Of a stretch of DNA of 24,000 nt, positions 1 to 18,756 are shown in pieces. The notes beneath the pieces are model-generated. The model ran no database searches, had not been told where the DNA came from, and worked only from the letters and a program-made list of their open reading frames with translations. The position numbers and the translations under genes were made by a program. The stretch is taken from NCBI RefSeq assembly GCF_016481275.1, contig NZ_JAEMNW010000001.1, forward strand, positions 1,145,531 to 1,169,530, written 5' to 3'. Source of the DNA: Antrihabitans sp. YC2-6 (GTDB taxonomy: Bacteria > Actinomycetota > Actinomycetes > Mycobacteriales > Mycobacteriaceae). Each line of letters begins with the position of its first letter. Within the stretch, counting starts at the first letter, position 1.

Positions 1-1241
1 GCCGCCACCGCGCACATGGCCGCCGCTGCAAACCAGGCGATCGTGTACTGCCCGGTCGCGTCCCGGACGACACCGGCCGCGACCGACGCGAACGCCGCGC
101 CGATCTGGTGCGCGGCAAACACCCAGCCGAAGACGATGGTCCCCGATTCGCCGAACGCGTCGCGGCACAATGCGGCGGTCGGCGGAACCGTCGCAACCCA
201 ATCGAGGCCGTAAACGACGACGAAGAGGACGATGCTCGGTTTGACGGTGTCGGCCAACAGGATCGGCAGGAGCATCAATCCGACTCCACGGAACCCGTAG
301 TACAGCGCGAGCAGAATGCGCGGATCGACGCGGTCGGTCAACGCGCCGGATGCGATCGTGCCGACGATGTCGAAGACGCCGACGACGGCAAGCAGTCCGG
401 CAGCCGTCGTCTCGGCCATTCCGTGGTCGTGCGCCGAAGGAATGAAGTGCGTGCCGATGAGCCCGTTGGTTGTGGCGCCGCAAATGGCGAAACCGCCTGC
501 GAGCGCCCAGAAGGTGCGCGTCTTCGCAGCCTCCCGCAGCGCCTGCACGGCGCGTCGGGCAGCGCCATGACCGGATGGCGGTCGCTCGAGAGCGATATCC
601 GACGACATCCCGTACGGCCGCACGCCGCGATCGACCGGGTAATCCCGCAGGAACGTAAGCACGAGGGGCACGACGAGCAGCGCCGCGAACGCGATGATCA
701 GCGACGCGATCCGCCATCCGGACCGTTCGGCAACCCAGGCGATGACCGGCAGAAAGATGAGCTGACCCGTTGCGCTTCCCGCTGTCAGGACACCCATCAC
801 CAAGCCACGGCGCTTGACGAACCAGCGATTCGCGATCGTCGCCGCAAATGCGAGCGCCATCGAACCCGTGCCGAGCCCGACCAGGACCCCCCACAACAGC
901 ATCAGCTGCCAACTCGCCGTCATGAAGATGGTCACGCCGCTGCCCGCGGAGATCAACAGAAGCGCGCACGTGACGACCTGGCGAATTCCGAAGCGATCCA
1001 TGAGTGCCGCGGCGAACGGCGCCGTCAGTCCGTACAACACGAGGTTGACGCCCACCGCCGTCGACAGCAGCCCACGCGACCAACCGAATTCGTCTTCGAG
1101 CGGCACCATCAGCACACCGGGCGCTGCCCTGAACCCTGCGGCACCGATCAGTGCGACAAAGGCAACGGCGGCAACGATCCACGCTGGATGCAGTCGATGC
1201 CCGCCGCCCGTCGGTGCGGCGCGCACGATTGGCTTGTTCAC
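1..1241 (-). CDS. MFS transporter (oxalate/formate-antiporter-like MFS_1), 3' end outside window
   Basis: Hand translation of the minus strand from GTG at 1241-1239, with an in-frame TGA two codons upstream. It gives MNKPIVRAAPTGG..WIVAAVAFVALIGAAGFRAAPGVLMVPLEDEFGWSRG..., multiple hydrophobic helices and the typical MFS loop DRFGIR. The frame stays open to base 1. The ORF track omits it because it runs off the window edge. Confidence 0.8.
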   Translation of the reverse strand, partial: MNKPIVRAAPTGGGHRLHPAWIVAAVAFVALIGAAGFRAAPGVLMVPLEDEFGWSRGLLSTAVGVNLVLYGLTAPFAAALMDRFGIRQVVTCALLLISAGSGVTIFMTASWQLMLLWGVLVGLGTGSMALAFAATIANRWFVKRRGLVMGVLTAGSATGQLIFLPVIAWVAERSGWRIASLIIAFAALLVVPLVLTFLRDYPVDRGVRPYGMSSDIALERPPSGHGAARRAVQALREAAKTRTFWALAGGFAICGATTNGLIGTHFIPSAHDHGMAETTAAGLLAVVGVFDIVGTIASGALTDRVDPRILLALYYGFRGVGLMLLPILLADTVKPSIVLFVVVYGLDWVATVPPTAALCRDAFGESGTIVFGWVFAAHQIGAAFASVAAGVVRDATGQYTIAWFAAAAMCAVA

Positions 1242-1274
1242 ATTTCAACCGTAGCGGGCAGCCTGTGCGGGGTG

Positions 1275-3167
1275 TCAGCCCTGCAGTGCCTCGATCGGGA
1301 TCGAGCCCGCCGCGAAGAGCTCCTCGACTCGCGCGGGTGGAACCGGCCGCGAGATCAGGAAGCCTTGCGCCCTGTGGCAACCGAGTTCGAGCAGCGTGCG
1401 CGCCGCGATCTCGGTCTCGACGCCTTCGGCGACAAGTGCCAGACCGAACGAATTTGCAAGTCCAACTATCGATTTCACGATGGCCAGGTCGTCGGCATCT
1501 TGACCGAGCCGCTGCACGAAACCCAGATCGATCTTCAGGGCGTCGACCGTCAGCGCCTTGAGGTGCGACAACGACGAGTAGCCGGTCCCGAAATCGTCGA
1601 TCGCAACTTGGACGCCGATCTTCTTGAGACCCTCGAGAGTGATTCGCGTGCGCGTCAGGTCTTGCACAACAACGTGTTCCGTTATTTCGAGGCACACCGA
1701 GGCGCCGTCAAGACCGAATTCCTTCAGCACCTTGTCGACGGAAGCCACGAAATCGAGACTGACGAGCTGGACCGGGGACACATTGATTCGGAGCACGATG
1801 TCGGACGCCAAGCCTTTGCGCCGCCATTCCGCGAGTTGCCGGCACGCCTCACGGATGACCCATCGGCCCAGTTCACCGGCCAAGTTCGTGGCCTCCGCGA
1901 CCTGAATGAACATGCCGGGGTACAGGAGTCCGCGGGTGGGATGCTCCCACCGCACGAGCGCTTCGACGGCAAGAATCTTGCCGGTGCGCAGGTCGACCTC
2001 GGGCTGGTAGTGCAGGAGCAGCGAATCGCTTTCTACCGCGTGCCGCAGATGCAACTCGATGTCGTCGCGCAGGGCGTGCTGCGCACGCATTTCGTCACTG
2101 AATGTCACGATCCCGTTGCCACCGGCAGACTTGGCGGCCAAAACAGCCTGGTCGGCCTGCCGCAGTACGTCCGATACCGAAGTTTCACCGGGAATTCCCA
2201 CGGCGACGCCGATGCTCACGCTGCGACTCACTTTTTCGCCGCCGACCACGACCCGCTCGCCGAAGAATCGCTTGATTCGCTCAGCCTCCCGCTGTGCATC
2301 GCTCGCCGTCAGGGGGACGGCGGGAACGATCACAAACTCGTCTCCCCCGAGGCGCGCAATCATGTCTCGCGGGTCGGTCTGATCGCGCAACCGCTTGGCG
2401 AGTGCCCGGATGAATTGGTCGCCCGCGGCATGGCCCAGGAAGTCGTTGAGCGCCTTCAGCCGATCCAGATCGATGAAGAGCGCCGCCACTGGGCCCGGTT
2501 GGCCTGGCTTCAGCCGGTGCTCCATGTACTCGAGAAGAGCGCGTCGGTTCGAGAGACCGGTCAGGTCGTCGTGCGCGGCAATGTGGCGCAGTCGCTCTTC
2601 GGCTTCGATTCGGCCCTGCAGTTGCGCGAAGAGTGCCGCGATGGCCTTGAGCGAATTGACCTCGTCATCCGACCAGTGACGATCGGAACTCTTGGTCAAA
2701 GTGACATTGCCGGTGGGTATTCCCGCAGATACGAGTGGCGCCGAAACGAACGAGACTTCCGGCCAGCCGGCACCGGCCAGCACCCGTTCCTCGTACTCGG
2801 GAAATTCGCCGCGCGGCCGGCCGAAGTACGGAAACGTGCGGGTTTCCGACGCTCTGAATGCATCATCGGCATCGGCGAAGTAGATCACTCCGAGCGGATC
2901 GGGCACAGGCTTGACCGGACGTACGGGGCACTCCGCGACAAGAACCGTCGCGTGAATGTTGTGGTCGTTGTACCTCAGGCAGGTGTGGTCCACCTCGAAA
3001 AACGCGAGCAATTCCGCCAGTACGCCTTCGGTCACCGACACCATCGTCGTGGCGTCAGCACCCATCAATCTCGTCGCAATGTCTGTGACGAGAAGATCGA
3101 GACTCCGCCGGATATCGACGCTACTCACCGAATCGCCTCCCATACCGCCAGCACCAAAGAGCCACAC
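1275..3167 (-). CDS. GAF-GGDEF-EAL c-di-GMP synthase/phosphodiesterase (Rv1354c/DcpA-like)
   Basis: 630-aa ORF with motifs HDDLTGLSNRRAL, RLGGDEFVIV (GGDEF), EALVRWEHP, DDFGTGYSSLSHL, KIDLGFV and EGVETE (intact EAL). The N-terminal ~170 aa look GAF-like. The start could be GTG at 3167 or ATG at 3143. Confidence 0.9.
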   Translation of the reverse strand: MWLFGAGGMGGDSVSSVDIRRSLDLLVTDIATRLMGADATTMVSVTEGVLAELLAFFEVDHTCLRYNDHNIHATVLVAECPVRPVKPVPDPLGVIYFADADDAFRASETRTFPYFGRPRGEFPEYEERVLAGAGWPEVSFVSAPLVSAGIPTGNVTLTKSSDRHWSDDEVNSLKAIAALFAQLQGRIEAEERLRHIAAHDDLTGLSNRRALLEYMEHRLKPGQPGPVAALFIDLDRLKALNDFLGHAAGDQFIRALAKRLRDQTDPRDMIARLGGDEFVIVPAVPLTASDAQREAERIKRFFGERVVVGGEKVSRSVSIGVAVGIPGETSVSDVLRQADQAVLAAKSAGGNGIVTFSDEMRAQHALRDDIELHLRHAVESDSLLLHYQPEVDLRTGKILAVEALVRWEHPTRGLLYPGMFIQVAEATNLAGELGRWVIREACRQLAEWRRKGLASDIVLRINVSPVQLVSLDFVASVDKVLKEFGLDGASVCLEITEHVVVQDLTRTRITLEGLKKIGVQVAIDDFGTGYSSLSHLKALTVDALKIDLGFVQRLGQDADDLAIVKSIVGLANSFGLALVAEGVETEIAARTLLELGCHRAQGFLISRPVPPARVEELFAAGSIPIEALQG

Positions 3168-3259
3168 CCATTCTGGGGACTCCCCGAGAGTCGTAAGCGT
3201 AGCCGTCGCGATCTCGTAACTCGACCGCAGCGCGTAATTCTTACGGTTCGATGGTCAGG

Positions 3260-4336
3260 TTAGCGACTACATTGGGTGCGAGCAGGAGATTCCGGTTGAC
3301 ATAAACCGTCGAGTGCATCGTCGAGGCAAACTCGAATACGGCCGGAAGGCAAAGACAGCCCTTGGCCGAATCGCCGAATCGCCGCAGCCACAATTGCTCC
3401 GCCGAGCTGCACGTCGGATCCGAGCTGAGGCCACGTCGACAATGACGTCCCAATCTCTGACATCGATGCGAGCAGTTGCGGAGACATCGAATCGCGCTCC
3501 AGAAAATCGATTACGAACTCGGCGCGGTCGGCCGGCGACATAGCTGCGAGGGACCCCCTGTCGATCGCACCTACCAACCCGTGCATGAGTGGCCAATTCG
3601 GATCCAGATCGTATCGTTCGACATCGAGCAGGCCACGATCGCTCGTTTCCATCAACACCGGAATTCCGCGTCCACGTGCCGCTTCGCGAACCGCAATCTT
3701 GATATCCATCGAGTCGCATTCCTCGACAACCAGATCGAGCCCGTCGAGGAACGCGGCGATAGAGCTGTCCGAGATCCCGGAAGGAACAGCGTCGACCCGC
3801 AAGTACGGATCCACCTCAGCAATGCGACGGGCGGCAACGTATGCCTTGTTCTCGCCGATGTCGAGGACCGAGGCAGGAATTCGATTCAAATTCGACAACG
3901 AGATCTCGTCGAAATCCGCCAATCGAAGCTCGCCACAGAGTCCTTCGAGCGCGATTGTGTGTGCAATGGCGTGTCCGACGCTCAGCCCGACAACACCGAT
4001 GGTCAGCGCCTCGAACCTCGCCTGAGCCTCCGACGTGATCTTGTTGCGGTTCCGGTCCAGGCGCAATCGGCGAAAGGCACGGGGGCCAGGTAGGTGGAGA
4101 ACCGCGCGACGCCACGGGTAGTACACCCAACGCGCAGGCTCATCTCGAATCTCTGCCGGCAATGGTGGAACCAGCTCAGCCATCTCCTCGGTCAACAGGT
4201 TGCTTTTGTCGACTACGAGAACGGAATCGTCACGGCGCAACCGCTCGAGATACGCGGCATCGGCAGGATCTGCGATGTCGAGCACCCTGGGCGCGTACTG
4301 ATCGGCCGGCAATTCTTGTATGTGCCTATTGGTCAC
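3260..4336 (-). CDS. E1/ThiF-like adenylyltransferase-fold protein, Rv1355c (MoeY) family-like, short form
   Basis: This is the C-terminal 358 aa of track ORF 3260..5002. It has a ThiF-type nucleotide loop region (IGVVGLSVGHAIA), LADFDEISLSNLNR, and DLVVEECDSMDIKIAVREAARGRGIPVL. The N-terminal ~100-aa extension includes RWVYYPWRRAVLHLPGPRAFRRLRLDRNRNKIT. The proposed GTG start at 4336-4334 overlaps the upstream TGA (GTGA). The Arg/Pro-rich upstream 222 aa of the track ORF are an off-frame artefact. Confidence 0.75.
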   Translation of the reverse strand: MTNRHIQELPADQYAPRVLDIADPADAAYLERLRRDDSVLVVDKSNLLTEEMAELVPPLPAEIRDEPARWVYYPWRRAVLHLPGPRAFRRLRLDRNRNKITSEAQARFEALTIGVVGLSVGHAIAHTIALEGLCGELRLADFDEISLSNLNRIPASVLDIGENKAYVAARRIAEVDPYLRVDAVPSGISDSSIAAFLDGLDLVVEECDSMDIKIAVREAARGRGIPVLMETSDRGLLDVERYDLDPNWPLMHGLVGAIDRGSLAAMSPADRAEFVIDFLERDSMSPQLLASMSEIGTSLSTWPQLGSDVQLGGAIVAAAIRRFGQGLSLPSGRIRVCLDDALDGLCQPESPARTQCSR

Positions 4337-5115
4337 AGTTTGGCCAATGCCACGTTGAATCTGTCTGTGGGCAGACCGATGCTGTCTGCGAGATCCATCC
4401 ACTCGGACAACGTCGTCAGCACTTGGCCGTGATCGGCCACATCTGCGAACGTTTCGCGATCCCACCAAACCAACTTGGTCCGATAGCGATCGGTGGGGTA
4501 TGCCGCCGCTGGAATCTCCTCCACCGGAAGGCCACCGGATTTGCGCCACAGCGGCAGGACATGGTCCGCGCCGGTACCGACGGCATACTTCACGTTCCAA
4601 ATCGCCGTCGCATGCAGAATGCACCGCGAGATCACGTCCGAGATAGCGGACTTGTTTTTGGCGTCGGGCGCTACCCACCCGGTTTTCAGCTCGACGACGC
4701 CGTCGTCGAGCCTGTCCGCGACGAGCTGCCGAACTGCATCTTGACCGACGCAGCCTTCCCATTCCTCGACCGCATGGGCTTCGTCGGCGAATGTGTACGG
4801 ACCCTGGCAGCGGACGCCACCGACAATCGCACCCTGTGAATCCTCGACCACGAAGAAGAGCGTTGTGGAAGCCCCGTCTTCGATTCGGTCGTATTCCAGG
4901 GCGCTCACGACACCATAGGCCTGGTAGCTGTGCAGCGCGCCGTCCAGATACTGGCGCCACATCTCGGGATCCCGTCGGGGGGTGCAGAGGCGGACCCGGC
5001 ACTGCGACCGGCGATCGAAGAATCCCGGGTGGGCATCGATTCCAAGCGTGCGCAGGTGTGTTGCCGAAGCCGCGATGGGATCAGACTGGGTGTCTGCGAA
5101 CATAACGTCGGTCAT
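4333..5115 (-). CDS. Hypothetical protein, possible GNAT / autoinducer-synthase-like acyltransferase fold (Rv1356c-sized)
   Basis: Track ORF 4333..5253, trimmed to ATG at 5115 (MTDVMFADTQ...) because the upstream codons are A/T-rich and look non-coding. The coding-like composition continues throughout. Segments LEYDRIEDG..TLFFVVEDSQGAIVGGVRCQ and VELKTGWVAP...LPLWRKSGG resemble LuxI/N-acyl-amino-acid-synthase-type GNAT cores. That assignment rests on motifs only. Confidence 0.6.
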   Translation of the reverse strand: MTDVMFADTQSDPIAASATHLRTLGIDAHPGFFDRRSQCRVRLCTPRRDPEMWRQYLDGALHSYQAYGVVSALEYDRIEDGASTTLFFVVEDSQGAIVGGVRCQGPYTFADEAHAVEEWEGCVGQDAVRQLVADRLDDGVVELKTGWVAPDAKNKSAISDVISRCILHATAIWNVKYAVGTGADHVLPLWRKSGGLPVEEIPAAAYPTDRYRTKLVWWDRETFADVADHGQVLTTLSEWMDLADSIGLPTDRFNVALAKL

Positions 5116-5353
5116 TTTGGTTCCAATCGGTCTCTGAGTCCGCAATACAAGCGGAGTCTGGGATGAAACTCGGCGGCGAGCCTTATTAGGCAGCACGCCG
5201 TCGCATCCAATTATCCCGATAGTTTTCGGTAACGGAACAGTCGCAGAGAACAATTGCTCAAACGTCCAATCAGCAATAAATAGCTGAATGGTTGCGACAT
5301 GTCAGAATGTCGACGAAAAGGCCGAAATCGATTGCGCGAGTTGCTTTTCGGAG

Positions 5354-5788
5354 TTAGCTGGCGACCGAGATAAGGAGCTCGACACTACCGTCCCGATGGA
5401 AAATTTCCATTTCCGCACCGTAGGCACGCGTTATCGATCCGAGATCGGCGGCTGCCTTGGCCTGCACCCACAGATCCTCAATTGGATCGGAATACTCGCC
5501 ATTAGGTTTGAACACTGCGTAAATACCTTTCGGCACCAACGCAAAAACGTCTCCGAACGGGATCTCATCCGTAGATTCATACGCAAAACAGACCAAAACA
5601 TTGCTTTGGCCGGTCGAATCAGGGATGTAGACGGTAAAGACTTCGTTTCGATCTTCGGCACGCTCCCAGAGGCGGCCCTTCAAGAATTCGACCAGTTCGC
5701 TGGAACCGACCTTGAACCCCGGCGTCACTCTCGGCACGACAAGCCCGCCGAACAACTGCCGCTCCCGGATGACGAATGCTTGGCTCAT
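5354..5788 (-). CDS. GyrI-like (AraC effector-binding / SbmC-like) small-molecule-binding domain protein
   Basis: Internal ATG at 5788 of track ORF 5354..6157 gives 144 aa: MSQAFVIRERQLFGG...LVPKGIYAVFKPNGEYSDPIEDLWVQ...EMEIFHRDGSVELLISV, a typical GyrI-like pattern. The track ORF upstream of this ATG overlaps the next gene out of frame. Confidence 0.7.
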   Translation of the reverse strand: MSQAFVIRERQLFGGLVVPRVTPGFKVGSSELVEFLKGRLWERAEDRNEVFTVYIPDSTGQSNVLVCFAYESTDEIPFGDVFALVPKGIYAVFKPNGEYSDPIEDLWVQAKAAADLGSITRAYGAEMEIFHRDGSVELLISVAS

Positions 5789-5808
5789 AGGTCGCTCGCC
5801 GCCCTCGC

Positions 5809-6264
5809 TCACGCCTTCTCGCCCGGGCGCTCGATGGAGAGGTACAGGTCGATCTTGTACGCATGCGGGTAGCACTCGAAGTCCCCCGCGAAGGTTCGCT
5901 TTATCTCGTTGTGTTCCTCGGCGTAATTGATCTGCGTCCACAGGTCGGCCATCACCTTCGGAAACTGGCCGATGGCGGAGAACCGGGCGTAGTGACCACG
6001 CGGTACCCGAGCGACCAAATGGCCGCGCGTGACGGCGTCGAGTGACGAGCACTCGTAGCCCACGATCTGCGTATTGTACGTTTCCAGATCCGGCGAGAAA
6101 TCCGTATATATGGACGCGAGCGGCCCGGCAAAGTCCTGTTTCAGGACCGCCGACCACGCTTCTTCGAGCGCTTGATCGCGCAATTTGCCCAGGGCCCGCT
6201 TCGGACTGCGCACCGGCAACCCAGCCACCCAGGTCTCACCGCGTTCCACAATCTGAAACTGCAT
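5809..6264 (-). CDS. GyrI-like (AraC effector-binding / SbmC-like) small-molecule-binding domain protein
   Basis: 151-aa ORF: MQFQIVERGETWVAGLPVRS...ARVPRGHYARFSAIGQFPKVMADLWTQINY...GDFECYPHAYKIDLYLSI. A GAAGGAG Shine-Dalgarno sits 5 nt upstream of the ATG, and a TGTTAGAAT extended -10-like element lies further upstream. Confidence 0.75.
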   Translation of the reverse strand: MQFQIVERGETWVAGLPVRSPKRALGKLRDQALEEAWSAVLKQDFAGPLASIYTDFSPDLETYNTQIVGYECSSLDAVTRGHLVARVPRGHYARFSAIGQFPKVMADLWTQINYAEEHNEIKRTFAGDFECYPHAYKIDLYLSIERPGEKA

Positions 6265-6490
6265 CGGACTCCTTCGAATCAGACCGGGCGAACCTTCGAG
6301 CGGAGCGCCACAATTCTAACAATTGCCGAAACTTACAGCCGGAGAAAGAGGCGCTGACCGCTTTACGCCGAACTGTTGCGCCTACGAAGAACACAATAAT
6401 TGGAGCAACTCACTGTGCTGCGAGGAGGGACCGTATTGCAAATAAGCATGCCCTGTGCGAGCGATCGGCAAATGCCGTTGACGATTGTAC

Positions 6491-6566
6491 TGGTGGAGCT
6501 GAGGGGAATCGAACCCCTGACCTCTTCGATGCGAACGAAGCGCGCTACCAACTGCGCTACAGCCCC
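6491..6566 (-). tRNA. tRNA-Ala (anticodon CGC), CCA encoded
   Basis: The reverse complement is GGGGCTGTAGCGCAGTTGGTAGCGCGCTTCGTTCGCATCGAAGAGGTCAGGGGTTCGATTCCCCTCAGCTCCACCA. It folds as a cloverleaf with a 7-bp acceptor stem carrying the G3:U70 Ala identity pair, anticodon stem CTTCG/CGAAG with loop TTCGCAT, and a GGTTCGATTCC T-arm. Confidence 0.95.
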
Positions 6567-6655
6567 GTGCGGTCACGTTCAACCGCGCTGCGCAACTCTA
6601 GCAGGCACCCCGCCGGTACTCCGAATCGAGGTCTGCCAAAGCCCGGATTCCGTAC

Positions 6656-7537
6656 CTATTCGCCTGCTGCCCTTCGCATTCCACCGGCGCCCTTGGGCTC
6701 AGATGTACGTCTGCCCATCGTCATATCCGGATGATCCAGGTAGTCGAAAGCTGGGTCTTCGTCATCACATTCGAGGACGACAGCACCCGGGCGGCGCAAT
6801 CGCGTCGGTACCAGACGCAACTCGTCATCGGTTGCCGACTCGACACCGAGCCGGGCACGCCCGAGCCGGGCCATGCGGCGACGGCGAATCTCTTCTTCCA
6901 TCCGCACCTGCTTGCGCAGGTAGCTGAGGTACGTCGCGAGCATGGCCACCGCGATGGCGCAGGCCCACCACATCTTCGGCGAGATGATCATTCCGAGTGC
7001 CGCCGTCATCAGCGACGCCAGCACGAGCCCAAGCACCGCACGTTGCCGGAACGAGTAGCGTGCGGCACGCGCTATCGCATCGGCCTGCGGATCGAAACCA
7101 CCGCGACCGCGCCTGCTCGGGACGTAGTCCTCCTGCGACTCGCCGTCGCGGGCGGTCGGTCGGCCGGACCGGCGCCTCGGCTCGTCACGCCGATCGACAT
7201 CATCGTCGCGACGGTCGAAGTCATCGCCGCCTCGATCGAAATCGTCGTCGATCATGTCGCTTGCTTCGTCTGCGCGAGTGTCCATCAGGTCCTCCGCGTC
7301 GATGCCGGGTCTTTGGGTACGAGATTCCATTGGCGTCGGTTGCCAATCAGGATCACTGTCATGGCCCGTCGCCGGCGAGTATGCAGCGCGACGTTTCGAA
7401 CCGCCGCGGAACAACACCCTGGTGGCGAGCGCGACATCGGTGGTTTGCCGGATGCGCGGATGCCGGTCGGCGAGCAGCGGAAACAGGACGAAAAGCCACA
7501 GCACGACCAGCCCGATCCACAAGATCGAATTCGGCAT
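6656..7537 (-). CDS. Divisome membrane protein SepX/GlpR family (Rv0996-like)
   Basis: Track ORF 6656..7549. ATG at 7537 is preferred because GGGAGG lies 11 nt upstream. The protein has an N-terminal TM helix (SILWIGLVVLWLFVLFPLL), an acidic/basic disordered repeat region (DDDFDRGGDDFDRRDDDVDRRDE), a second TM hairpin and a basic C-terminus. Its position two genes downstream of moeA and the GNAT gene matches the conserved actinobacterial cluster. Confidence 0.75.
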   Translation of the reverse strand: MPNSILWIGLVVLWLFVLFPLLADRHPRIRQTTDVALATRVLFRGGSKRRAAYSPATGHDSDPDWQPTPMESRTQRPGIDAEDLMDTRADEASDMIDDDFDRGGDDFDRRDDDVDRRDEPRRRSGRPTARDGESQEDYVPSRRGRGGFDPQADAIARAARYSFRQRAVLGLVLASLMTAALGMIISPKMWWACAIAVAMLATYLSYLRKQVRMEEEIRRRRMARLGRARLGVESATDDELRLVPTRLRRPGAVVLECDDEDPAFDYLDHPDMTMGRRTSEPKGAGGMRRAAGE

Positions 7538-7670
7538 TGCGGTGACCACCTCCCGTCCGCGCCACTTGCTCTGACGACAACTCTGACGGTCCCAAGGCTA
7601 GTGTCCGACACGCCGCGAACCCCCGCGACGCGCCGGATGCTCAACCACAACTGTCACTTCAGTAACAGAG

Positions 7671-8327
7671 CTACGCCCAGCTGGCTTTGCCCGCCCGACA
7701 GAGGCGGTCCACGACCGTCCCGACGACCTCTTCTTGCGTTATCCCGACGAGCAGGTGGTCACGCCACGCGCCGTCGACGTCCAGATAGCGCTCGAGCAGG
7801 CCTTCCGTCCGAAATCCCACGTTTCGCAGAACTGCTTGGCTGGCAAGGTTTTCCGGCCGGACGGTGGCCTCGACCCGGTGTAACCCGACCGGACCGAAGC
7901 AGTGATCGAGCCCGAGCGCGAGGGCTGCCGTCGCGACGCCGCCGCCACCGACATCCTTCGCCACCCAGTAGCCGATCCAGGCCGACCGTAGCGGTCCGCG
8001 GATGATGTTTCCGATCGTCAGCTGACCGCAGAACCGGCCGTCGACCTCGATGACAAGCGGAATCATGTGGCCCTTACGGGCTTCCGACTTCAACGTCGAC
8101 CACAACCCTGGCCAGTTGGACGTGTGATGGCGAGCCTCCCACGGCCCGGTCCCGGTCGGTTCCCACGGCTGCAGATGGTCGCGATCACGCGTGCGGATCC
8201 GGCTCCAGACCGACCCGTCACGCAACCTGATCGGCCGCAGGCTCACCACTCCCGCAGCAACCCGCACCGACCCCAACTGCGCAGGCCAACCGGGATGGCT
8301 CGACCACTTCACTACGTTGTTTCCCAT
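7671..8327 (-). CDS. GNAT family N-acetyltransferase (RimJ-like, Rv0995-like)
   Basis: The last 218 aa of track ORF 7671..9509, starting at ATG 8327: MGNNVVKWSS...LRPIRLRDGSVW...IGYWVAKDVGGGGVATAALALGLDHCF...LHRVEATVRPENLASQAVLRNVGFRTEG. The remaining upstream 394 aa of the track ORF run out of frame through moeA and are an artefact. Confidence 0.85.
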   Translation of the reverse strand: MGNNVVKWSSHPGWPAQLGSVRVAAGVVSLRPIRLRDGSVWSRIRTRDRDHLQPWEPTGTGPWEARHHTSNWPGLWSTLKSEARKGHMIPLVIEVDGRFCGQLTIGNIIRGPLRSAWIGYWVAKDVGGGGVATAALALGLDHCFGPVGLHRVEATVRPENLASQAVLRNVGFRTEGLLERYLDVDGAWRDHLLVGITQEEVVGTVVDRLCRAGKASWA

Positions 8328-8344
8328 GTTGGTGCGGCCGCGAC

Positions 8345-9604
8345 TCAACCACGTTGCGCGAGAAATGCAACATCCACTTCGTCGCCGGTGCGTATTTCGG
8401 TGACGTCTGGATCGATCACGACGAGGCAATTGGCCTCGGCAAGCGTCGCGAGCAGGTGCGAAGACGACCCGGGTGCCCCGCCCAGTGCCTGAACCAGGTA
8501 CTCCCCCGTCGATTCGTCGCGCATGAGCTGCGCGCGCAGGAATCCCTTGCGGTTCTTGATCGATGTGATCGGGCCGACCGTGCGTGCGGAGACGATTCGC
8601 CGCATCGGCTGCCGCCGCCCGAGTGCTATTCGAATGAGCGGGCGGACCATCACCTCGAACACCACAAGCGCACCAACAGGATTGGCCGGTAGGAGAAAAG
8701 TCGGAACTTCGTCGCGGCCGAGTTGCCCGAAACCCTGCACAGAGCCGGGATGCATTGCGACACGCTCGACTTCCAGCTTGCCGAGTTCGGCCAACGCCTC
8801 CCGCACCTGCTCGGAGGCGCTGCCGCCGACCGCCCCCGCAATGACGACGAGTTCGGATCGGATCAGCTGGCCTTCGACGATCTCCCGCAACCGTTTCGGA
8901 TCGGTGCCGACTATCCCGACGCGGTTGACGTCCGCGCCGGCGTCGCGGGCCGCTGCCGCCAGCGCATAGGAGTTGACGTCGAAAACCTGACCGGGTCCCG
9001 GGACTCGATCGATGTCGACCAACTCGCCGCCGACCGAAATGATCGACACCCGAGGTCGCGGGTGAACGAGAACCTTGTCGCGCCCGACCGCCGCGAGCAA
9101 CCCGACCTGAGCAGCGCCGATGATCGTGCCCGAGCGGACAGCGACATCGCCGGGCTGCACGTCGTCGCCGGCCCTGCGAACGAAATCGCCGGACCTGACG
9201 GGCGCGAGGACCTTGATGCGGTCGCGGCTGCGGTTGGTCCGGTCGAGCGGGAGAACAGCATCGGCAAGGGTCGGCATCGGAGCACCGGTGTCGACCCGGA
9301 CAGCTTGGCGGGGCTGCAAACGCGTCGGCGTGCGTGACCCCGCCACCACTTCGCCGACAACAGGAAGGAGCACATCGGCGGTGTCGGCGGCTTCGCCGCG
9401 GCCGTCGATGCCGACGGCTGCCACATCGACACTTCGCACGGCATAGCCGTCGATAGCGGCTTGATCGAAGCCCGGCAATGCGTTCTCGGTGATCACTTCC
9501 TCGGCGCACAGCAGACCCTGCGCTTCCGATATCGCGACTCGGACCGGGCGCGGAGCGACAGCCGCAGCAGTCACTCTCGTCAATTGGTCCTCGACCGAGC
9601 GCAT
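8345..9604 (-). CDS. moeA: Molybdopterin molybdenumtransferase MoeA family (gephyrin-like; Glp-type by context)
   Basis: 419-aa ORF with a typical MoeA N-terminus (MRSVEDQLTRV...PGFDQAAIDGYAVR) and central and C-terminal MoeA domains. It lies between galU and the RimJ-like gene, as in Rv0993-Rv0995. Confidence 0.9.
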   Translation of the reverse strand: MRSVEDQLTRVTAAAVAPRPVRVAISEAQGLLCAEEVITENALPGFDQAAIDGYAVRSVDVAAVGIDGRGEAADTADVLLPVVGEVVAGSRTPTRLQPRQAVRVDTGAPMPTLADAVLPLDRTNRSRDRIKVLAPVRSGDFVRRAGDDVQPGDVAVRSGTIIGAAQVGLLAAVGRDKVLVHPRPRVSIISVGGELVDIDRVPGPGQVFDVNSYALAAAARDAGADVNRVGIVGTDPKRLREIVEGQLIRSELVVIAGAVGGSASEQVREALAELGKLEVERVAMHPGSVQGFGQLGRDEVPTFLLPANPVGALVVFEVMVRPLIRIALGRRQPMRRIVSARTVGPITSIKNRKGFLRAQLMRDESTGEYLVQALGGAPGSSSHLLATLAEANCLVVIDPDVTEIRTGDEVDVAFLAQRG

Positions 9605-9640
9605 GGCTCCCTTCCGGTACGTCCTGTCAGTGCAAGCGGC

Positions 9641-10585
9641 TTATTCGTACGTCGTGAGCTGGGGCGCCCAGTCGTCGCTGAGCCGGTGCACCAGCCACTC
9701 ACGCAGGGACGGTCCGTATTCGTCACTGTCCAAGGCAAAGTCAACCGCAGCGCGCAGGTAGCCGCCAGGATTTCCGAGGTCGTGTCGCGCACCGCGATGC
9801 ACGACGACGTGAACCGGATGACCCTCCGAGATCAACAATGCGATGGCATCGGTCAGCTGAAGCTCACCGCCGGAACCGGGTTTGATCCGGCGCAGGGCAT
9901 CGAAGATTGCACGATCGAGCAGGTACCGGCCTGCGGCGGCGAACGTCGAGGGCGCATCCTCGATCGCCGGCTTCTCGACCATGCTCAGCACTTTGAGGAC
10001 GTTCGGGTTCACCGCGTCCGGCACTTCTTCGACCTCGAAGACGCCGTAGGCGCTCACCTGGTCTTTGGGAACGTCGATCGCACACAGCACCGAGCCGCCG
10101 CGCTTACGCCGAACGCGCGACATCACATCGAGCACACCTCGCGGTACGACGAGATCGTCGGGCAGCAGAACCGCGATGGCGGTCTCGTCGTCGTCGAGGA
10201 CCTTTTCGGCCTGCGCGACGGCGTGTCCGAGCCCGAGCGGTTCCTCCTGGACCACCGACTCGACTTCCAGCAGTCCTGGCGCTTTTCGCACCTTCTCGAG
10301 CAATTTGAACTTGCCCTTGGCCTTGAGCTTGCTTTCGAGGACGAGGTCTTCGACGAAGTGCGCCACGACGCCGTCCTTACCGGGCGACGTCACGATCACG
10401 AGCCGCTCGGCTCCCGAATCGGCCGCCTCTCCGGCAACCAACTCGATACCCGGCGTGTCCACGACGGGAAGCAATTCCTTCGGCACTGTCTTCGTCGCCG
10501 GTAGAAACCTGGTTCCCATGCCTGCAGCGGGCACCACGGCTGTTCGAAAGCACGGCGTAACGGTTTCACCAGTGCCAGCTGTCAT
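9641..10585 (-). CDS. galU: UTP--glucose-1-phosphate uridylyltransferase
   Basis: Track ORF 9641..10618. ATG at 10585 is preferred (MTAGTGETVTPCFRTAVVPAAGMGTRFLPATKTVPKELLPVVD...). The GalU signature AAGxGTRFLPATK is present. Confidence 0.9.
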   Translation of the reverse strand: MTAGTGETVTPCFRTAVVPAAGMGTRFLPATKTVPKELLPVVDTPGIELVAGEAADSGAERLVIVTSPGKDGVVAHFVEDLVLESKLKAKGKFKLLEKVRKAPGLLEVESVVQEEPLGLGHAVAQAEKVLDDDETAIAVLLPDDLVVPRGVLDVMSRVRRKRGGSVLCAIDVPKDQVSAYGVFEVEEVPDAVNPNVLKVLSMVEKPAIEDAPSTFAAAGRYLLDRAIFDALRRIKPGSGGELQLTDAIALLISEGHPVHVVVHRGARHDLGNPGGYLRAAVDFALDSDEYGPSLREWLVHRLSDDWAPQLTTYE

Positions 10586-10605
10586 ACCCAACACCCTATC
10601 TACTC

Positions 10606-11253
10606 GTGGCGTGCGCATTGCGTCCGATGCAGCCTATGGTGAACCGCGTGAACTCGCGCGCAGATCGGCGCCAGCCCGATTCACCCGGCAAAGCGGAGTG
10701 GCGCAAAAGAATTCTGCGCGCCCGTCGGGCCTTGGATTCCGCCGTTCATGAATCCGAAGCCCATTCGCTCGCCGCCGCTGCGCGGGTGCTGGCAGTCGCA
10801 GACGCCACGGTGTGCGCATATGTCCCGGTAGGCAGCGAACCCGGCTCTATTGCAATGCTCGACGAACTGGTGAGCGGCGGCTCGCGCGTGTTGCTACCGG
10901 TCGCGCGCGAAGCGGGCCCACTGCGTTGGGCGCAATACGAGGGGACCGACTCGCTCGTCCCGGCGCCGTTCGGGTTACTGGAACCCGCGGGCCACGTCCT
11001 GGCCGAAGAAGAGATCGCGTCGGCGACAATCGTTCTCGTGCCCGCGCTCGCGGTGGACCGCCGGGGAGTACGGCTCGGCCGTGGCGCGGGGTTCTACGAC
11101 CGCACCCTCGGAATGGCCGGTCCACGTGCACGTTTGCTTGCTGTTGTGCGCGACGACGAGGTTGTCGACCACCTGCCCGCGGACCCGCACGACAGGCCGA
11201 TTCACGCCGCGCTGACACCCAATCATGGGATCATCGAACTCGGTGCCTTGTGA
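10606..11253 (+). CDS. 5-formyltetrahydrofolate cyclo-ligase
   Basis: 215-aa ORF containing KAEWRKRILRARRAL, VPALAVDRRGVRLGRGAGFYDR and a typical C-terminus. The true start may be one of the internal Met codons (10627 or 10636), because the galU start lies only ~20-50 nt away on the other strand. Confidence 0.85.
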   Translation: MACALRPMQPMVNRVNSRADRRQPDSPGKAEWRKRILRARRALDSAVHESEAHSLAAAARVLAVADATVCAYVPVGSEPGSIAMLDELVSGGSRVLLPVAREAGPLRWAQYEGTDSLVPAPFGLLEPAGHVLAEEEIASATIVLVPALAVDRRGVRLGRGAGFYDRTLGMAGPRARLLAVVRDDEVVDHLPADPHDRPIHAALTPNHGIIELGAL

Positions 11254-14436: not shown

Positions 14437-15015
14437 CTATTCCGCCAATCCGGAAAGCTCGCCGATCACGTGCGTCGCCAGCGGAGTCAAAGTAGCCATG
14501 CCGTCGCGGATCGCGGCGCGCGATGCGGCGAGGTTTACGACGAGTGTGCTTCCCGACACGCCGACCAGACCGCGTGAGAGACCTGCATCGAGCGCGCCGG
14601 CAGCCAGACCCGAAGAACGGAGGGCCTCGCTGATACCCAACAATTCGCGGTCGAGGACGTCGGCAGTCGCATCCGGCGTGACGTCACGCGGCGACACACC
14701 TGTACCGCCGACCGAAATGACAAGGTCGACGCCACCGATCACCGCAGTGTTCAGCGCGTTCCGGATTTCGACCTCGTCAGCGGCGACGAGAACCGTCGCG
14801 TCGACGAGGAAGCCTGCTTCGTTGAGCAACTCCGTGACCAGCGGGCCGGTACTGCTCGACCCGTCTGTGTGGGCAACACGGTCGTCGACAATCACTACGA
14901 GAGCACGGCCCGCAACTGGGACATCGATTTCCATGCTGCCTACCGTAGTGCCACGCAGTTCTCGCGTAGAGACCTGCCCGGGAAACGAATACTGGGTACG
15001 CCCGATCGTCCGCAT
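14437..15015 (-). CDS. moaB: Molybdenum cofactor biosynthesis protein B (MoaB/MogA family; Rv0984-like)
   Basis: Sequence includes ALVVIVDDR...STGPLVTELLNEAGFLVD...DLVISVGGTGVSPRDVTPDA...GLVGVSGSTLVVNLAAS. The ATG at 15015 overlaps the pepD TGA (TGATG), indicating translational coupling. A shorter start (MEIDVP) is possible. Confidence 0.85.
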   Translation of the reverse strand: MRTIGRTQYSFPGQVSTRELRGTTVGSMEIDVPVAGRALVVIVDDRVAHTDGSSSTGPLVTELLNEAGFLVDATVLVAADEVEIRNALNTAVIGGVDLVISVGGTGVSPRDVTPDATADVLDRELLGISEALRSSGLAAGALDAGLSRGLVGVSGSTLVVNLAASRAAIRDGMATLTPLATHVIGELSGLAE

Positions 15016-16358
15016 CAACGGCCACCGGTCTCGGGTGCCTGCGTCAGCGTGACCTCGACCGACTTCTCGTTTCTGCCGTTCTCGTCGGTGTAGGTCACCG
15101 ACACCTTGTCTCCTGGCTCGCGGGACCGGATGGCGGCGATGAGTGCGTCTCCGGAATCGATGCGACGCTCGTCGACCTTGATGATGACCGAATTCTTCGG
15201 AATCCCCGCAAGCTCGGCAGGTCCGCCCGCGGTCACATCCGTGACGCGTGCGCCGTTGGCCTCGTCCTGCGACGGAACCTGCACACCGATGAGCGCGTGC
15301 GTGGCTCTGCCCGTCGTACGCAATTCGTCGGCGATGCGCGCTGCGGTATCCACCGGAATCGCGAAGCCGAGACCGATCGAGCCGCTCTGCGCCTGCTGAC
15401 CGGACTCGCCGCCCAAGGTCGCGATGGCGGTGTTGATGCCGACGAGCTTGCCGTTCATGTCGACGAGCGCGCCGCCGGAGTTGCCAGGATTGATCGCAGC
15501 GTCGGTCTGCACCGCGTCGATGACGGTGTTCTGATTGTTCGAGTCACCGCTCGTCGACACCGGGCGGTTGAGCGACGACACGATTCCGCTGGTGACCGTG
15601 CCGGCCAGGCCGAGCGGCGAGCCGATCGCGACAACCTGCTGGCCGACCTGCAAACCCGACGAATCACCGAGTTCGATCGGCGTCAAGCCGGTCTTTCCGT
15701 CGACCTTGATCACGGCGAGGTCCGAAACTGCGTCGGCACCGACGACCGTTGCGGGCGCGGTGGACCCATCCGAGAAGACCACGGTGATTCTGCCGTCGCG
15801 GCCTGCGCCGGACGCGACGTGATTGTTGGTCAGGATCATGCCGTCCGACGAGAGGACCACACCCGAACCTTCACCTTCGGCACGCTCGCCCACGATCTTG
15901 ATCATCACGACGCTGGGAACGACCTTGTTCGCGACCGCCTGCACCGAACCCGCCGGCGCGTTGATAGCCGGAGTCGCGCTGGTCTTGGGCGCATCGAGCG
16001 CGTTCGTGCTCGATGCACCACTGGAACTGTTCGAATTCTCGGTGGCCAACACGCCGACCGCACCGCCGACGCCACCACTCACCAGTGCAAGGACGCAAGC
16101 CCCCGCGACGAGTCCCGCACGACCGCGGCGGCGCGGAGCCACCGGCTGGGCCTGCGTCGGCGCGTATCCATAGGTTCCGTACGCGGGTGGCTGCTGCGGA
16201 AAGTCCGCAGGTCCGAACTGCGCTGCTGTACGGTGCGCGTGGACGTCGGTGCGGCGAATGTCGGACGTGTTGTAGTGACCCGAATCGGTGGGATAGCCCT
16301 GGCTCGGCTGGTTGCCGGCGCCGGATTGGCCCTCGGCACCTATCTGGTTGTCGGACAT
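15015..16358 (-). CDS. pepD: HtrA/PepD-type trypsin-like serine protease with C-terminal PDZ domain
   Basis: ATG at 16358 (MSDNQIG...) is preferred because AAGGAAG lies about 10 nt upstream. The protein has a Pro/Gln-rich N-terminus, a TM helix, catalytic motifs TNNHV, DLAVIK and NPGNSGGALVD, and a PDZ domain at the C-terminus. Confidence 0.9.
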   Translation of the reverse strand: MSDNQIGAEGQSGAGNQPSQGYPTDSGHYNTSDIRRTDVHAHRTAAQFGPADFPQQPPAYGTYGYAPTQAQPVAPRRRGRAGLVAGACVLALVSGGVGGAVGVLATENSNSSSGASSTNALDAPKTSATPAINAPAGSVQAVANKVVPSVVMIKIVGERAEGEGSGVVLSSDGMILTNNHVASGAGRDGRITVVFSDGSTAPATVVGADAVSDLAVIKVDGKTGLTPIELGDSSGLQVGQQVVAIGSPLGLAGTVTSGIVSSLNRPVSTSGDSNNQNTVIDAVQTDAAINPGNSGGALVDMNGKLVGINTAIATLGGESGQQAQSGSIGLGFAIPVDTAARIADELRTTGRATHALIGVQVPSQDEANGARVTDVTAGGPAELAGIPKNSVIIKVDERRIDSGDALIAAIRSREPGDKVSVTYTDENGRNEKSVEVTLTQAPETGGR

Positions 16359-16433
16359 CGGTCCCCGCTTCCTTACTAGTACGGCTCGGTCGAGCGGTAC
16401 CCATACGTGTCTTGCGTCAAGCATGTCGACGGC

Positions 16434-16452
16434 GGCTGAGAGCGAACTGAGA
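16434..16452 (-). promoter_or_regulatory. MprA-box-like direct repeat upstream of pepD
   Basis: Minus strand reads TCTCAGTT-CGC-TCTCAGCC: two 8-bp direct repeats with a 3-nt spacer (11-bp period), in the mprB-pepD intergenic region. Confidence 0.65.
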
Positions 16453-16482
16453 CCGGCATATCAGTTTGCCGAGACAATGCTG

Positions 16483-18003
16483 TCAGTCCACCTGCGGCGA
16501 GCCCGGTTCCCTGCCGCGCCGGTCCCCTGGCTCGAATGTGCCCGGTTCGCCGGGCAGCACGATCCTGATTATTGCGCCCCCCCGCGTCGATGTCCCGATC
16601 GCGATCGTTCCGCCATGTTTGACGACCACCTGCCGCACGATCGCCAATCCCAGCCCCGAACCGGGCATCGAGCGCGACGCCATGGTCCGATAGAAGCGTT
16701 CGAAGACGAGCTCACGCTCTTCCGCCGGGATGCCGGGTCCGGCGTCGTCGACCGACAACTCGATCAATCCGCCACCCAGATGCCGCATCAGCACGTCGAC
16801 CCGCTCCCCCGGCGGGCTCCATTTCGCCGCGTTGTCGAGAACGTTGAGAACCGCGCGTTGCAAACCGGCCTCGTGGCCGTACACGAACCACGGCTCGAGG
16901 ACCGCTGTGAACGCAATTTCGTTGCGGCGCCTGCGCGCTCGTTCGAGTGCACGCTCGACGACGTCCGCGAGGTCGACCCGTTCGTAAACGGTTTCAGGCG
17001 CATCCTCGCGGGCAAGGTCCACGAGATCGCCTACCAGCGTGGACAATTCCTCGATCTGCGCGATGACGTCGGCGCGCAGTTCGATCATGTCCTCGTCCGG
17101 AACCCGTGGCGCCCCAGGGCGACTCGACGCGATGAGCAGTTCCGTGTTGGTGCGCAACGAGGTCAGCGGCGTACGCAACTCGTGGCCCGCATCGGCGACG
17201 AGCCGGCTCTGGCGGTCGCGCGACTCCGCGAGCGCACGCAGCATCGTATTGAAACTCTCTGTGAGCCTTGCCAGTTCGTCGTTGCCGGTGACCGGTATAG
17301 GTGTCAGGTCGTCGGTTCGGGCGACGCGCTCGGCCGCTGCGGTCAACCGGGCAATCGGCCGCAGTCCAGTCCGTCCGACCGCCGTACCGGCAACCGCTGC
17401 CAGCACGACTCCGCAGCCACCCACGATGAACAACACCCACGCAAGCCGGTCGAGGACCTCACCGGTCGGCTGGAGCCGTTGGGCGAGAACGAGAGTGCTG
17501 CCGGTATGGGTTCGCGCGGTGAGGACGCGGTGGCCGTCGGCGGTGTGCAGTGACGTCTGTCGTTCACCTTTCGCCACGGCCATTTCGTCGGCGCCGATCG
17601 GCGCGTTCGATCCCGGCGGCATGTAGACGTTCAGGTCGGGGAAGATCAGCGCAACGCTGATGTCCTTCGAATAGAACGTCGCAAAGTCGATGAACCGGAC
17701 GTCGAGCGCGTCGAGGTTGTTGTCGATCAGGGTCGCGGCGCGTGTCTTCAACTGTTCGTCGACGTCCGCGTACAACGCTCGCGCCACAACCGCGTAGGCG
17801 GCGATCGCCATCACAGCCACCGCGATAGCGACCACGGACGCCGCAAGCAATGTGACGCGCCAGCGCAACGACACCGAGCGCGTCAACGGCATGGGTGGAC
17901 GCATTTCGTTCGCGACCGAAACACCGACCGGCGCCAACGGCTTCGTGCCCGATGCACCTCCGTTGACGCCGGTGGGAGTGTCTCGGTGCAGCCCCAACCT
18001 CAC
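16483..18003 (-). CDS. mprB: Two-component sensor histidine kinase MprB
   Basis: 506 aa with two TM segments, a HAMP domain, the H-box AGHELRTPLTSL, and HATPase motifs (DNAAKWS, DDAGPGI, GSGLGLAIV). It lies immediately downstream of mprA. The start could be the internal MRPPMPL. Confidence 0.9.
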   Translation of the reverse strand: MRLGLHRDTPTGVNGGASGTKPLAPVGVSVANEMRPPMPLTRSVSLRWRVTLLAASVVAIAVAVMAIAAYAVVARALYADVDEQLKTRAATLIDNNLDALDVRFIDFATFYSKDISVALIFPDLNVYMPPGSNAPIGADEMAVAKGERQTSLHTADGHRVLTARTHTGSTLVLAQRLQPTGEVLDRLAWVLFIVGGCGVVLAAVAGTAVGRTGLRPIARLTAAAERVARTDDLTPIPVTGNDELARLTESFNTMLRALAESRDRQSRLVADAGHELRTPLTSLRTNTELLIASSRPGAPRVPDEDMIELRADVIAQIEELSTLVGDLVDLAREDAPETVYERVDLADVVERALERARRRRNEIAFTAVLEPWFVYGHEAGLQRAVLNVLDNAAKWSPPGERVDVLMRHLGGGLIELSVDDAGPGIPAEERELVFERFYRTMASRSMPGSGLGLAIVRQVVVKHGGTIAIGTSTRGGAIIRIVLPGEPGTFEPGDRRGREPGSPQVD

Positions 18004-18016
18004 TGTGCCGAACGCC

Positions 18017-18703: not shown

Positions 18704-18723
18704 GTCAACAGTTTGGCCCGCGC

Positions 18724-18742: not shown

Positions 18743-18756
18743 ACTCGCTCTGTGAC

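Follow-up and report, generated by a model that had tools for sequence, protein, structure and literature searches.

A stretch of 24 kb from Antrihabitans sp. YC2-6 (assigned here to the Nocardiaceae), called the window below, contains on its minus strand two overlapping open reading frames, ORF A and ORF B, that are related to the gene pair trzA-trzS of N-acyl tryptazolone biosynthesis. In this pathway, which was described by Kleetz et al. (J Biol Chem 2025, PMC12856293) and has homologues in M. smegmatis and R. jostii RHA1, the acyl-CoA:L-tryptophan N-acyltransferase is TrzA (Rv1356c), while TrzS (Rv1355c) consumes ATP to cyclise the N-acyl-Trp, which it then desaturates in an O2-dependent step. 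ORF B is predicted to correspond to the cyclase half of TrzS, and the second half, an FMN-dependent oxidase (FDO), is absent from the window. The pair and its immediate surroundings comprise the following features.

5115 to 4333, minus strand: ORF A, with an ATG start and a TGA stop at 4335-4333, 260 amino acids, putative TrzA-family N-acyl amino acid synthase (GNAT/LuxI-like)
4336 to 3260, minus strand: ORF B, with a GTG start at 4336-4334, 358 amino acids, putative cyclase-only (FDO-less) TrzS
3260 to 4336, minus strand: role predicted for ORF B from NF005901 and Pfam ThiF, a ThiF/E1-like ATP-dependent N-acyl-amino-acid cyclodehydratase
4333 to 4336, minus strand: GTGA stop/start overlap of ORF A and ORF B, read from the sequence
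3168 to 3259, no strand: spacer of 92 nt; full-length loci have here about 1.1 kb of sequence coding for the FDO domain
1275 to 3167, minus strand: GAF-GGDEF-EAL protein of cyclic di-GMP (c-di-GMP) turnover (Rv1354c-like; Pfam EAL, GGDEF and GAF), directly downstream of ORF B

The plus-strand letters at 4333-4336 are tcac, which read GTGA on the minus strand. The annotations of A. stalactiti, A. cavernicola and Mycobacterium sp. DL99 show an identical overlap of 4 nt, and ORF A and ORF B are probably translationally coupled. The NCBI annotation of Antrihabitans sp. YC2-6 contains the same two products of 260 and 358 amino acids (100% identity and coverage), the counterpart of ORF A being named hypothetical protein. 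The start of ORF B is uncertain, with in-frame alternatives at codon 9 (TTG) and codon 18 (GTG). A mechanical ORF of 580 amino acids (3260 to 5002) was rejected as an artefact, in which ORF B is run upstream through the coding region of ORF A. The GC content at codon positions 1, 2 and 3 is 0.66/0.47/0.73 for ORF A and 0.67/0.46/0.65 for ORF B in their own frames, whereas it is 0.74/0.67/0.46 for the upstream extension read in the frame of ORF B; the third position is there the lowest, as in a frame that is non-coding. Because of this pattern, the long ORF is considered as an extension of ORF B and not as a gene. An initial annotation of this DNA had described two real genes joined by GTGA and hidden by a chimera, and the sequence reading, the codon-position GC and the NCBI annotation all agree with it. 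A scan of the region 2900-5500 for promoters and terminators gave sites no commoner than chance, and none in the two intergenic gaps.

With the NCBIfam model NF005901 ("Rv1355c family protein"), ORF B obtains a score of 501.3 bits (E = 4e-150), above the curated cut-off of 476, but the match spans only positions 9-349 of the 722 positions of the profile. ORF B had been taken in the initial annotation for the N-terminal part of the Rv1355c family, which these values support; the molybdopterin label "MoeY" that came with this assignment is historical only. The Pfam ThiF domain covers residues 94-228, and the motif LADFDEISLSNLNR, already quoted in that annotation, is found at residues 139-152. 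From the alignment with full-length homologues of about 700 amino acids taken from the genome loci, the end of ORF B falls in the interdomain linker, after the last conserved cyclase element PSGRxRxxL and before APSGGNxQPW, where the nitroreductase-type domain starts. The motifs WVYYPWRR, RLDRNRNKIT, GVVGLSVGH, LADFDxxxLSNLNR, EECDS, METSDxGxLDVER and STWPQLG are intact, and 58 columns are invariant over 48 homologues of ORF B at a mean identity of 56%. The residue Asp208 (motif EECDS) is invariant in the 48 homologues and is aligned with the catalytic residue Asp130 of MoeB/TcdA. In TrzS, the mutation D217A abolishes cyclisation and all products (PMC12856293), and the mutagenic primer given for M. 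smegmatis TrzS in the supplement of that paper translates as VEEC[A]SLD. From this context, VEEC[D>A]SLD, the experimentally essential aspartate (D217 in M. smegmatis) therefore sits at EECD208S of ORF B.

The AlphaFold2 model of ORF B, computed from an alignment of 48 sequences, has a pLDDT of 89.9 and a pTM of 0.89, with disorder only at residues 1-6 and 354-358. The closest structures detected by Foldseek are the stand-alone ThiF-type enzymes AclA (9egb), ThiF, TcdA, PaaA and MccB. AclA from Tenacibaculum discolor (about 250 amino acids, substrate-bound; PDB 9egb/9egc/9egd) is the closest of all solved structures (E = 3e-14, target-normalised TM-score 0.80-0.82), and no paper on it was found in the literature searched. 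By sequence, the best match among solved structures is TcdA/CsdL, the tRNA t6A cyclodehydratase (PDB 4d7a and 4rdh; profile E = 6e-15). This enzyme is also E1-like: at the expense of ATP, it joins a carboxylate to the oxygen of a neighbouring carbonyl to form an oxazolone ring, and it works without any oxidase partner; it differs by its substrate (a modified tRNA nucleoside), by the lack of the N-terminal extension, by another C-terminal subdomain and by an identity of only about 20% to ORF B. Encoded directly downstream of a trzA-type gene that it overlaps by 4 nt, ORF B is thus predicted to be the cyclase half of TrzS with intact catalytic motifs, for which the cyclisation half of the TrzS reaction is the only plausible one.

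The trzS gene is about 2.1 kb long in full-length loci. The fused C-terminal FMN-dependent oxidase that characterises the TrzS family is absent from ORF B, which gives no match with PF00881 in Pfam. The adjacent and separate FDO gene (tyzC) that characterises the TyzACB system is absent as well, the neighbours of ORF B being the trzA-type gene and the GAF-GGDEF-EAL gene. A tblastn search of the 24-kb window with six FDO domains gave a best E value of 0.02, and a hidden Markov model (HMM) of 57 FDO domains gave a best E value of 0.49 against the six-frame translation of the window. A Pfam scan found no nitroreductase domain in the ten other genes of the window, which encode a MoeA homologue, a nucleotidyl transferase, a GNAT acetyltransferase, a HtrA-type protease, a histidine kinase, a response regulator, CobW-like and VWA-domain proteins and two proteins without match. 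There is accordingly neither room for a nitroreductase-like domain, as the initial annotation had stated, nor a trace of it. Since the GGDEF-EAL gene directly follows the cyclase half, 92 nt away, the FDO has been deleted and not displaced. At five other loci with a short trzS (L081, L083, L084, L089 and L090), no FDO was detected within 5-6 kb.

ORF A has nothing at an E value of 1 or better in Pfam and NCBIfam, and no match among the PDB sequences. Its homologues likewise carry no precomputed Pfam domain; the family thus appears to be without a model in these libraries. The AlphaFold2 model (pLDDT 87.1, pTM 0.84) displays the three-layer alpha/beta/alpha fold of the GNAT proteins. FeeM (2g0b), BjaI (5w8a), RpaI (6wn0) and TofI (3p2h) are among the top Foldseek matches, with E values of 2e-6 to 2e-5. 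The predicted fold is thus that of the FeeM/NasY N-acyl amino acid synthases and of the CoA-dependent LuxI-type enzymes BjaI and RpaI, with E values of 2e-6 to 1e-5 and target-normalised TM-scores up to 0.69 against FeeM/BjaI-type structures but a sequence identity of only 10-14%. The motif EYD...FFVVEDSQGAIVGGVR, from which an N-acyl-amino-acid-synthase/LuxI-like GNAT fold had been suggested in the initial annotation, is located in ORF A, and the model and its matches are in favour of this suggestion.

A word-indexed search returned 12 homologues of ORF A, as if it belonged to a rare orphan family. This proved to be an artefact of sensitivity: the profile built from these 12 homologues retrieved 378 cluster representatives in an exhaustive search, and a genome scan, confirmed by tblastn, detected 372 relatives in species-representative genomes. 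The downstream gene was recorded at the best 80 of these 372 loci. At about 46 of the 80, a Rv1355c-type (TrzS) gene of about 700 amino acids lies immediately downstream of the ORF A relative on the same strand, and at one of them (L052) the two genes are fused in frame. There are 15 cluster representatives of 692-978 amino acids, at least 13 of which contain ORF A-like, ORF B-like and FDO segments in that order. TrzA-cyclase-FDO single polypeptides of 934-978 amino acids are represented by P0181, P0197, P0221, P0231, P0238, P0242, P0248, P0256, P0266, P0275 and P0277. By these fusions, ORF A-like and ORF B-like proteins are functionally tied. Over 70 diverse members of the family, 21 columns are conserved at 85% or more, and ORF A has the consensus residue in all 21. 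ORF A is 39-55% identical to the gene upstream of trzS in Rhodococcus, Nocardia, Nakamurella and Mycobacterium. In a cross-genus identity matrix, ORF A shares 42-48% with the TrzA homologues of other genera and 39-43% with those of two other Antrihabitans species, values to be compared with 43-49% between genera such as Rhodococcus and Mycobacterium. Most of the 372 genomic relatives immediately precede a full-length gene of the Rv1355c type, and ORF A is identified by its sequence as a putative member of the TrzA family and as the counterpart of Rv1356c that the initial annotation had proposed.

The short form of TrzS is not restricted to the window. Among the 120 best homologues of ORF B, 70 measure 330-375 amino acids and none exceeds 680 amino acids. 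A neighbour-joining tree was built on the cyclase domain. The window ORF B is included in a clade with sequences of Rhodococcoides (fascians, kroppenstedtii, trifolii and kyotonense); this clade contains 50-53 short members and none of 650 amino acids or more, and its three members of intermediate length (425-536 amino acids) are all on short metagenome contigs. A second clade is composed of seven sequences, all short, including those of A. stalactiti and A. cavernicola. Overall, there are about 60 short homologues in the two clades; every short form ends inside the linker, with no frameshifted remnant. The identity inside the short clades goes down to about 52-58% and the active-site motifs are invariant, which indicates long-term purifying selection on a cyclase-only enzyme. 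From these sequences, the short TrzS is seen as a conserved architecture of the Antrihabitans and Rhodococcoides clades, not as a recent decay. Two candidates were excluded from the short forms. At L034, the GGDEF-EAL gene is spaced as in full-length loci, and the neighbour is found in several blast segments, which points to frameshifts in a metagenome-assembled genome obtained from long (nanopore) reads. The gene of P0113 (Rhodococcus sp. NPDC059234) is cut by the end of a contig, and its FDO half (P0309) is on another contig.

The trzAS genes were reported to adjoin the c-di-GMP genes rv1354c and rv1357c (PMC12856293). A GGDEF-EAL gene is located at no more than 5 kb from the trzA homologue in 78 of the 83 loci, a count that quantifies and extends this adjacency. 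Of the 16 loci without trzS within 8 kb, 13 still show a GGDEF-EAL gene at up to 5 kb from trzA; ten of these 13 have it as the next gene after trzA, in the same orientation. These ten loci, where trzA is followed by the GAF-GGDEF-EAL gene, are L003, L013, L017, L018, L033, L044, L045, L055, L064 and L074 (trzA at about 8001-8700, GGDEF-EAL from about 8760). A GGDEF or GGDEF-EAL gene also flanks the short trzS at every short-form locus examined except the rearranged locus L088 of Mycobacterium sp. DL99. The layout of the window (trzA, short trzS, GAF-GGDEF-EAL) is found in A. stalactiti, in A. cavernicola and in the closest metagenomic relative (L085). In Rhodococcoides (L081, L089 and L090), the short trzS always adjoins a GGDEF-only gene of about 370-400 amino acids. 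R. fascians A25f (L081) and R. kyotonense (L090) have the short trzS followed by the GGDEF gene, with trzA convergent behind the latter, and R. fascians has an additional divergent EAL gene; in R. kroppenstedtii (L089), the GGDEF gene precedes the short trzS and trzA is absent within 5 kb. The acyltransferase and the c-di-GMP enzyme are the most constant pair, with a trzS that is variably full-length, short or absent.

Three characterised systems can be compared with the window pair. The first oxazolone synthetase to be described was OxzA/OxzB of Pseudoalteromonas rubra (de Rond et al., bioRxiv 10.1101/2020.06.11.147165). It has the same gene order and combines an N-acyltransferase with an adenylating cyclase of the ThiF type, whose substrate is an N-acyl aromatic amino acid; unlike ORF B, OxzB is a ThiF-nitroreductase fusion, is proteobacterial, uses Tyr/Phe and belongs to a different ThiF subcluster in the published network. 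TyzACB of M. tuberculosis produces N-acyl tyrazolones (Grigg et al., J Biol Chem 2023, PMC10404671). This system (Rv2336, Rv2338c and Rv2337c for TyzA, TyzB and TyzC) resembles the pair by its stand-alone ThiF-like cyclase TyzB (318 amino acids) and its GNAT-type N-acyl amino acid synthase, but tyzB invariably comes with a distinct FDO gene next to it, tyzC, and the window has no such gene. Moreover, ORF B falls in the TrzS (Rv1355c) family by profile score and has the N-terminal extension of about 95 amino acids typical of TrzS, whereas TyzB belongs to another subcluster than TrzS in the published network. TrzA/TrzS is the system that shares with the window the gene order acyltransferase, ThiF-like enzyme and c-di-GMP gene, in addition to the catalytic aspartate and the NF005901 score. 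The differences are the overlap of the window genes by 4 nt and, in ORF B, the lack of the whole FMN-dependent oxidase domain (about 360 amino acids, including R540 and Q651 of TrzS); O2-dependent desaturation is therefore impossible in cis. The initial annotation had suggested an undescribed module. This claim falls, since OxzAB, TyzACB and Rv1356c/Rv1355c (TrzA/TrzS) are N-acyl oxazolone synthases that were already characterised biochemically, and the Rv1356c/Rv1355c pathway itself has been described (PMC12856293). The structural guesses of the initial annotation were right: an acyltransferase of GNAT/LuxI-like type, an E1-like adenylating enzyme and no protein substrate.

Taken together, we think it rather probable that the pair is a TrzAS-type module of oxazolone-lipid biosynthesis without its oxidase, yielding a saturated 5(4H)-oxazolone. 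ORF A would N-acylate an aromatic L-amino acid from acyl-CoA, as judged from the biochemistry of its orthologues. By homology, ORF B would then adenylate the carboxylate of the N-acyl amino acid with ATP, and attack by the amide oxygen would close the ring to a 2-alkyl-4-substituted 5(4H)-oxazolone (azlactone). With the FDO for the C-alpha/C-beta desaturation absent, the enzyme-bound pathway would stop at the saturated oxazolone. This product is proposed because the oxidase is absent and because the same cyclised, non-oxidised species accumulates with TrzS R540A or when O2 is limiting (PMC12856293). L-Trp is our best guess for the amino acid substrate of ORF A, since the identity between ORF A and TrzA matches the between-genus spread in which the characterised Trp-specific enzymes occur. 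Judging from the gene layout, the GAF-GGDEF-EAL gene downstream is probably expressed together with ORF A and ORF B, which suggests an input of the product, or of its precursor, into c-di-GMP signalling.

Several observations weigh against this assignment. The absence of FDO covers 24 kb of a contig of at least 1.7 Mb, and a stand-alone FDO encoded elsewhere could complete the canonical pathway; in TyzACB, the cyclase and the oxidase are separate proteins. The specificity for Trp is an extrapolation, and a weak one. Between Antrihabitans species (window compared with L083 and L084), the identity is 36-39% for ORF A and 55-58% for ORF B, to be compared with 70-73% for the GGDEF-EAL protein, 81% for Cass2a (see below) and 84% for MoeA. 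The two genes thus diverge faster than their neighbours, and the substrate specificity may therefore have shifted. In addition, the window ORF B clusters with Rhodococcoides and not with the two other Antrihabitans species, and its GC content at the third codon position is 0.65 for values of 0.72-0.79 in the neighbours; divergence, clustering and GC content fit either a fast diversification or a replacement of the pair by recombination. Finally, azlactones are electrophilic acyl donors that racemise readily at C-alpha and hydrolyse in water. Because of this reactivity, the compounds that finally persist could be adducts or racemised N-acyl amino acids, and the physiological end product may differ from the labile saturated azlactone.

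The proposal of a saturated oxazolone can be extended, tentatively, to the reason for which the short form persists: the oxidase would have been lost long ago in the two short clades, and the cyclase kept since the saturated 5(4H)-oxazolone is itself the functional product. Such a molecule could conceivably be a reactive donor of acyl-amino acid, a route to racemised N-acyl-D-amino acids (azlactones epimerise easily), or a ligand of the N-terminal sensor of the neighbouring GGDEF/GGDEF-EAL enzyme, which is a GAF domain in the window gene.

It is possible, although in our opinion unlikely, that the canonical pathway is instead split, a stand-alone FDO encoded elsewhere desaturating the N-acyl amino acid or the released oxazolone to an unsaturated N-acyl oxazolone (tryptazolone-like). 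TyzB and TyzC are separate and can act in either order (PMC12856293, PMC10404671), whereas in TrzS the order is obligate, with cyclisation before desaturation within one polypeptide (PMC12856293). Stand-alone FDOs of 359-372 amino acids related to the FDO of TrzS were found by protein search, and Actinobacteria have several FDO paralogues. A separation of the two halves is observed in Mycobacterium sp. DL99, where a chromosomal rearrangement has split trzS at the interdomain linker: trzA (4249-5004) and the cyclase half (5001-6050) are at 4.51 Mb (L088), and the FDO half (6001-7119) and a GAF-GGDEF-EAL gene (7152-8999) are at 2.17 Mb (L091), on the same contig but 2.3 Mb from the cyclase half. 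Both halves are intact ORFs, and a trans-acting FDO is therefore possible in principle, which is a further point against a saturated product. The FDO of the window, however, was deleted and not carried off as in DL99, and none was detected in the 24 kb or within 5-6 kb of the five other short-form loci. A search with the Nakamurella FDO gave 66 matches, mostly metagenome fragments, none of them named Antrihabitans or Rhodococcoides; the sensitivity of this search is low, with a named source for about one quarter of the proteins.

The linkage with c-di-GMP enzymes could also be explained if the cyclase were repurposed for a mainly regulatory or sensory function in favour of the adjacent diguanylate cyclase/phosphodiesterase, for instance by binding or activating an N-acyl amino acid ligand. 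The short gene keeps a GGDEF or GGDEF-EAL neighbour even at loci with a convergent trzA (L081 and L090) or with none within 5 kb (L089), and the association with trzA in 78 of 83 loci includes 13 of the 16 trzS-less ones. Co-regulation explains this adjacency equally well, and the full set of catalytic motifs, including the ATP-contacting aspartate, is invariant across the short forms, which points to a retained enzymology; we regard a mainly regulatory or sensory function as improbable. A still more doubtful explanation, for which we see very little chance, is that ORF B is a non-functional fragment of a once full-length trzS. It covers half of the NF005901 profile, its third-position GC is low and the pair evolves faster than the flanking genes. 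On the other hand, the truncation falls exactly at the domain linker in about 60 homologues of two clades without frameshifted remnant, the 58 invariant columns persist at 56% mean identity, the predicted fold is confident and complete, and the genuine artefacts (L034 and P0113) are recognisable. The decaying fragment considered in the initial annotation does not agree with a short form that is clade-wide with intact motifs. Lastly, a classical E1/MoeB/ThiF function, in which ORF B would activate the C-terminus of a protein or peptide (a ubiquitin-like carrier of sulfur or the precursor of a ribosomal peptide), with ORF A modifying the same substrate, is suggested by the Pfam ThiF domain and by the structural likeness to ThiF, MoeB, MccB, PaaA and the SUMO E1, but is extremely improbable, since MoeB and ThiF family models give only 47-60 bits for cut-offs of 152-450, the ORF B sequence has no CxxC zinc motif and thus not the CxxC pair, the ORF list contains no Gly-Gly-terminated ORF of at least 60 amino acids between 2900 and 6300 and no ubiquitin-like (MoaD/ThiS-like) or precursor-peptide partner near the pair (as noticed from the beginning), the closest PDB sequence relative TcdA is a cyclodehydratase of the small-molecule type forming an oxazolone on t6A, and the orthologues act biochemically on N-acyl tryptophan (PMC12856293).

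Upstream of trzA, the window contains a further pair of genes.

6264 to 5809 and about 5812 to 5354, minus strand: two tandem Cass2/GyrI-like genes of small-molecule-binding proteins (Pfam Cass2)

These two genes have their own GTGA stop/start overlap at 5809-5812. In the window they immediately precede trzA on its own strand, and the same arrangement recurs at five other loci of Nocardiaceae (Nocardia, Rhodococcus and Antrihabitans), at 6830-7730 in L015, 6832-7727 in L066, 6853-7748 in L077, 3021-3913 in L084 and 4134-5032 in L087. The Cass2 pair accompanies short and full-length trzS alike and was seen at none of the mycobacterial loci; in Nocardiaceae, it may belong to the cluster without having been recognised as such. 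The part of the window with MoeA, the acetyltransferase and Cass2 is syntenic with A. cavernicola. The sole RNA gene detected in the window by ARAGORN and Rfam is a tRNA-Ala (anticodon CGC) at 6491-6566 on the minus strand. Housekeeping genes occupy 7671-10618 (GNAT acetyltransferase, MoeA homologue and nucleotidyl transferase) and 15015-18862 (HtrA-type protease, histidine kinase and response regulator), all on the minus strand; these two regions resemble the mycobacterial neighbourhoods rimJ-moeA1-galU and mprAB-pepD. An ORF of 1051 amino acids at 108-3263 on the plus strand, of low complexity and rich in Arg, Asp and Gly, was discarded as the antisense shadow of the GGDEF-EAL gene and of the sequence upstream of it, an artefact of high GC content.

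In the literature searched, the clusters of OxzAB, TyzACB, TrzAS, stieleriacine, kyonggic acid and thalassotalic acid contain a ThiF and a nitroreductase protein together or neither of them. With respect to the searchable literature, the new elements are thus the conserved oxidase-less architecture and the constant association with c-di-GMP enzymes. In Antrihabitans and related Nocardiaceae, TrzS appears from its sequence to be reduced to the ATP-dependent ring-closing half, the fused oxidase half having been lost. As a compact stand-alone azlactone synthetase of 358 amino acids, it could serve as a biocatalyst. The physiological role of the bacterial N-acyl oxazolones was stated to be an open question (PMC12856293). 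In this respect, the lineages that keep acylation and ATP-dependent ring closure without desaturation constitute a natural experiment, which would reveal the chemical step that is preserved by selection. The linkage of the acyltransferase with GGDEF-EAL proteins over 83 loci, regardless of the state of trzS, suggests that these molecules, or their N-acyl-amino-acid precursors, act via c-di-GMP. If the saturated oxazolone is indeed functional, there would be in these bacteria a signalling axis from oxazolones or N-acyl amino acids to c-di-GMP.

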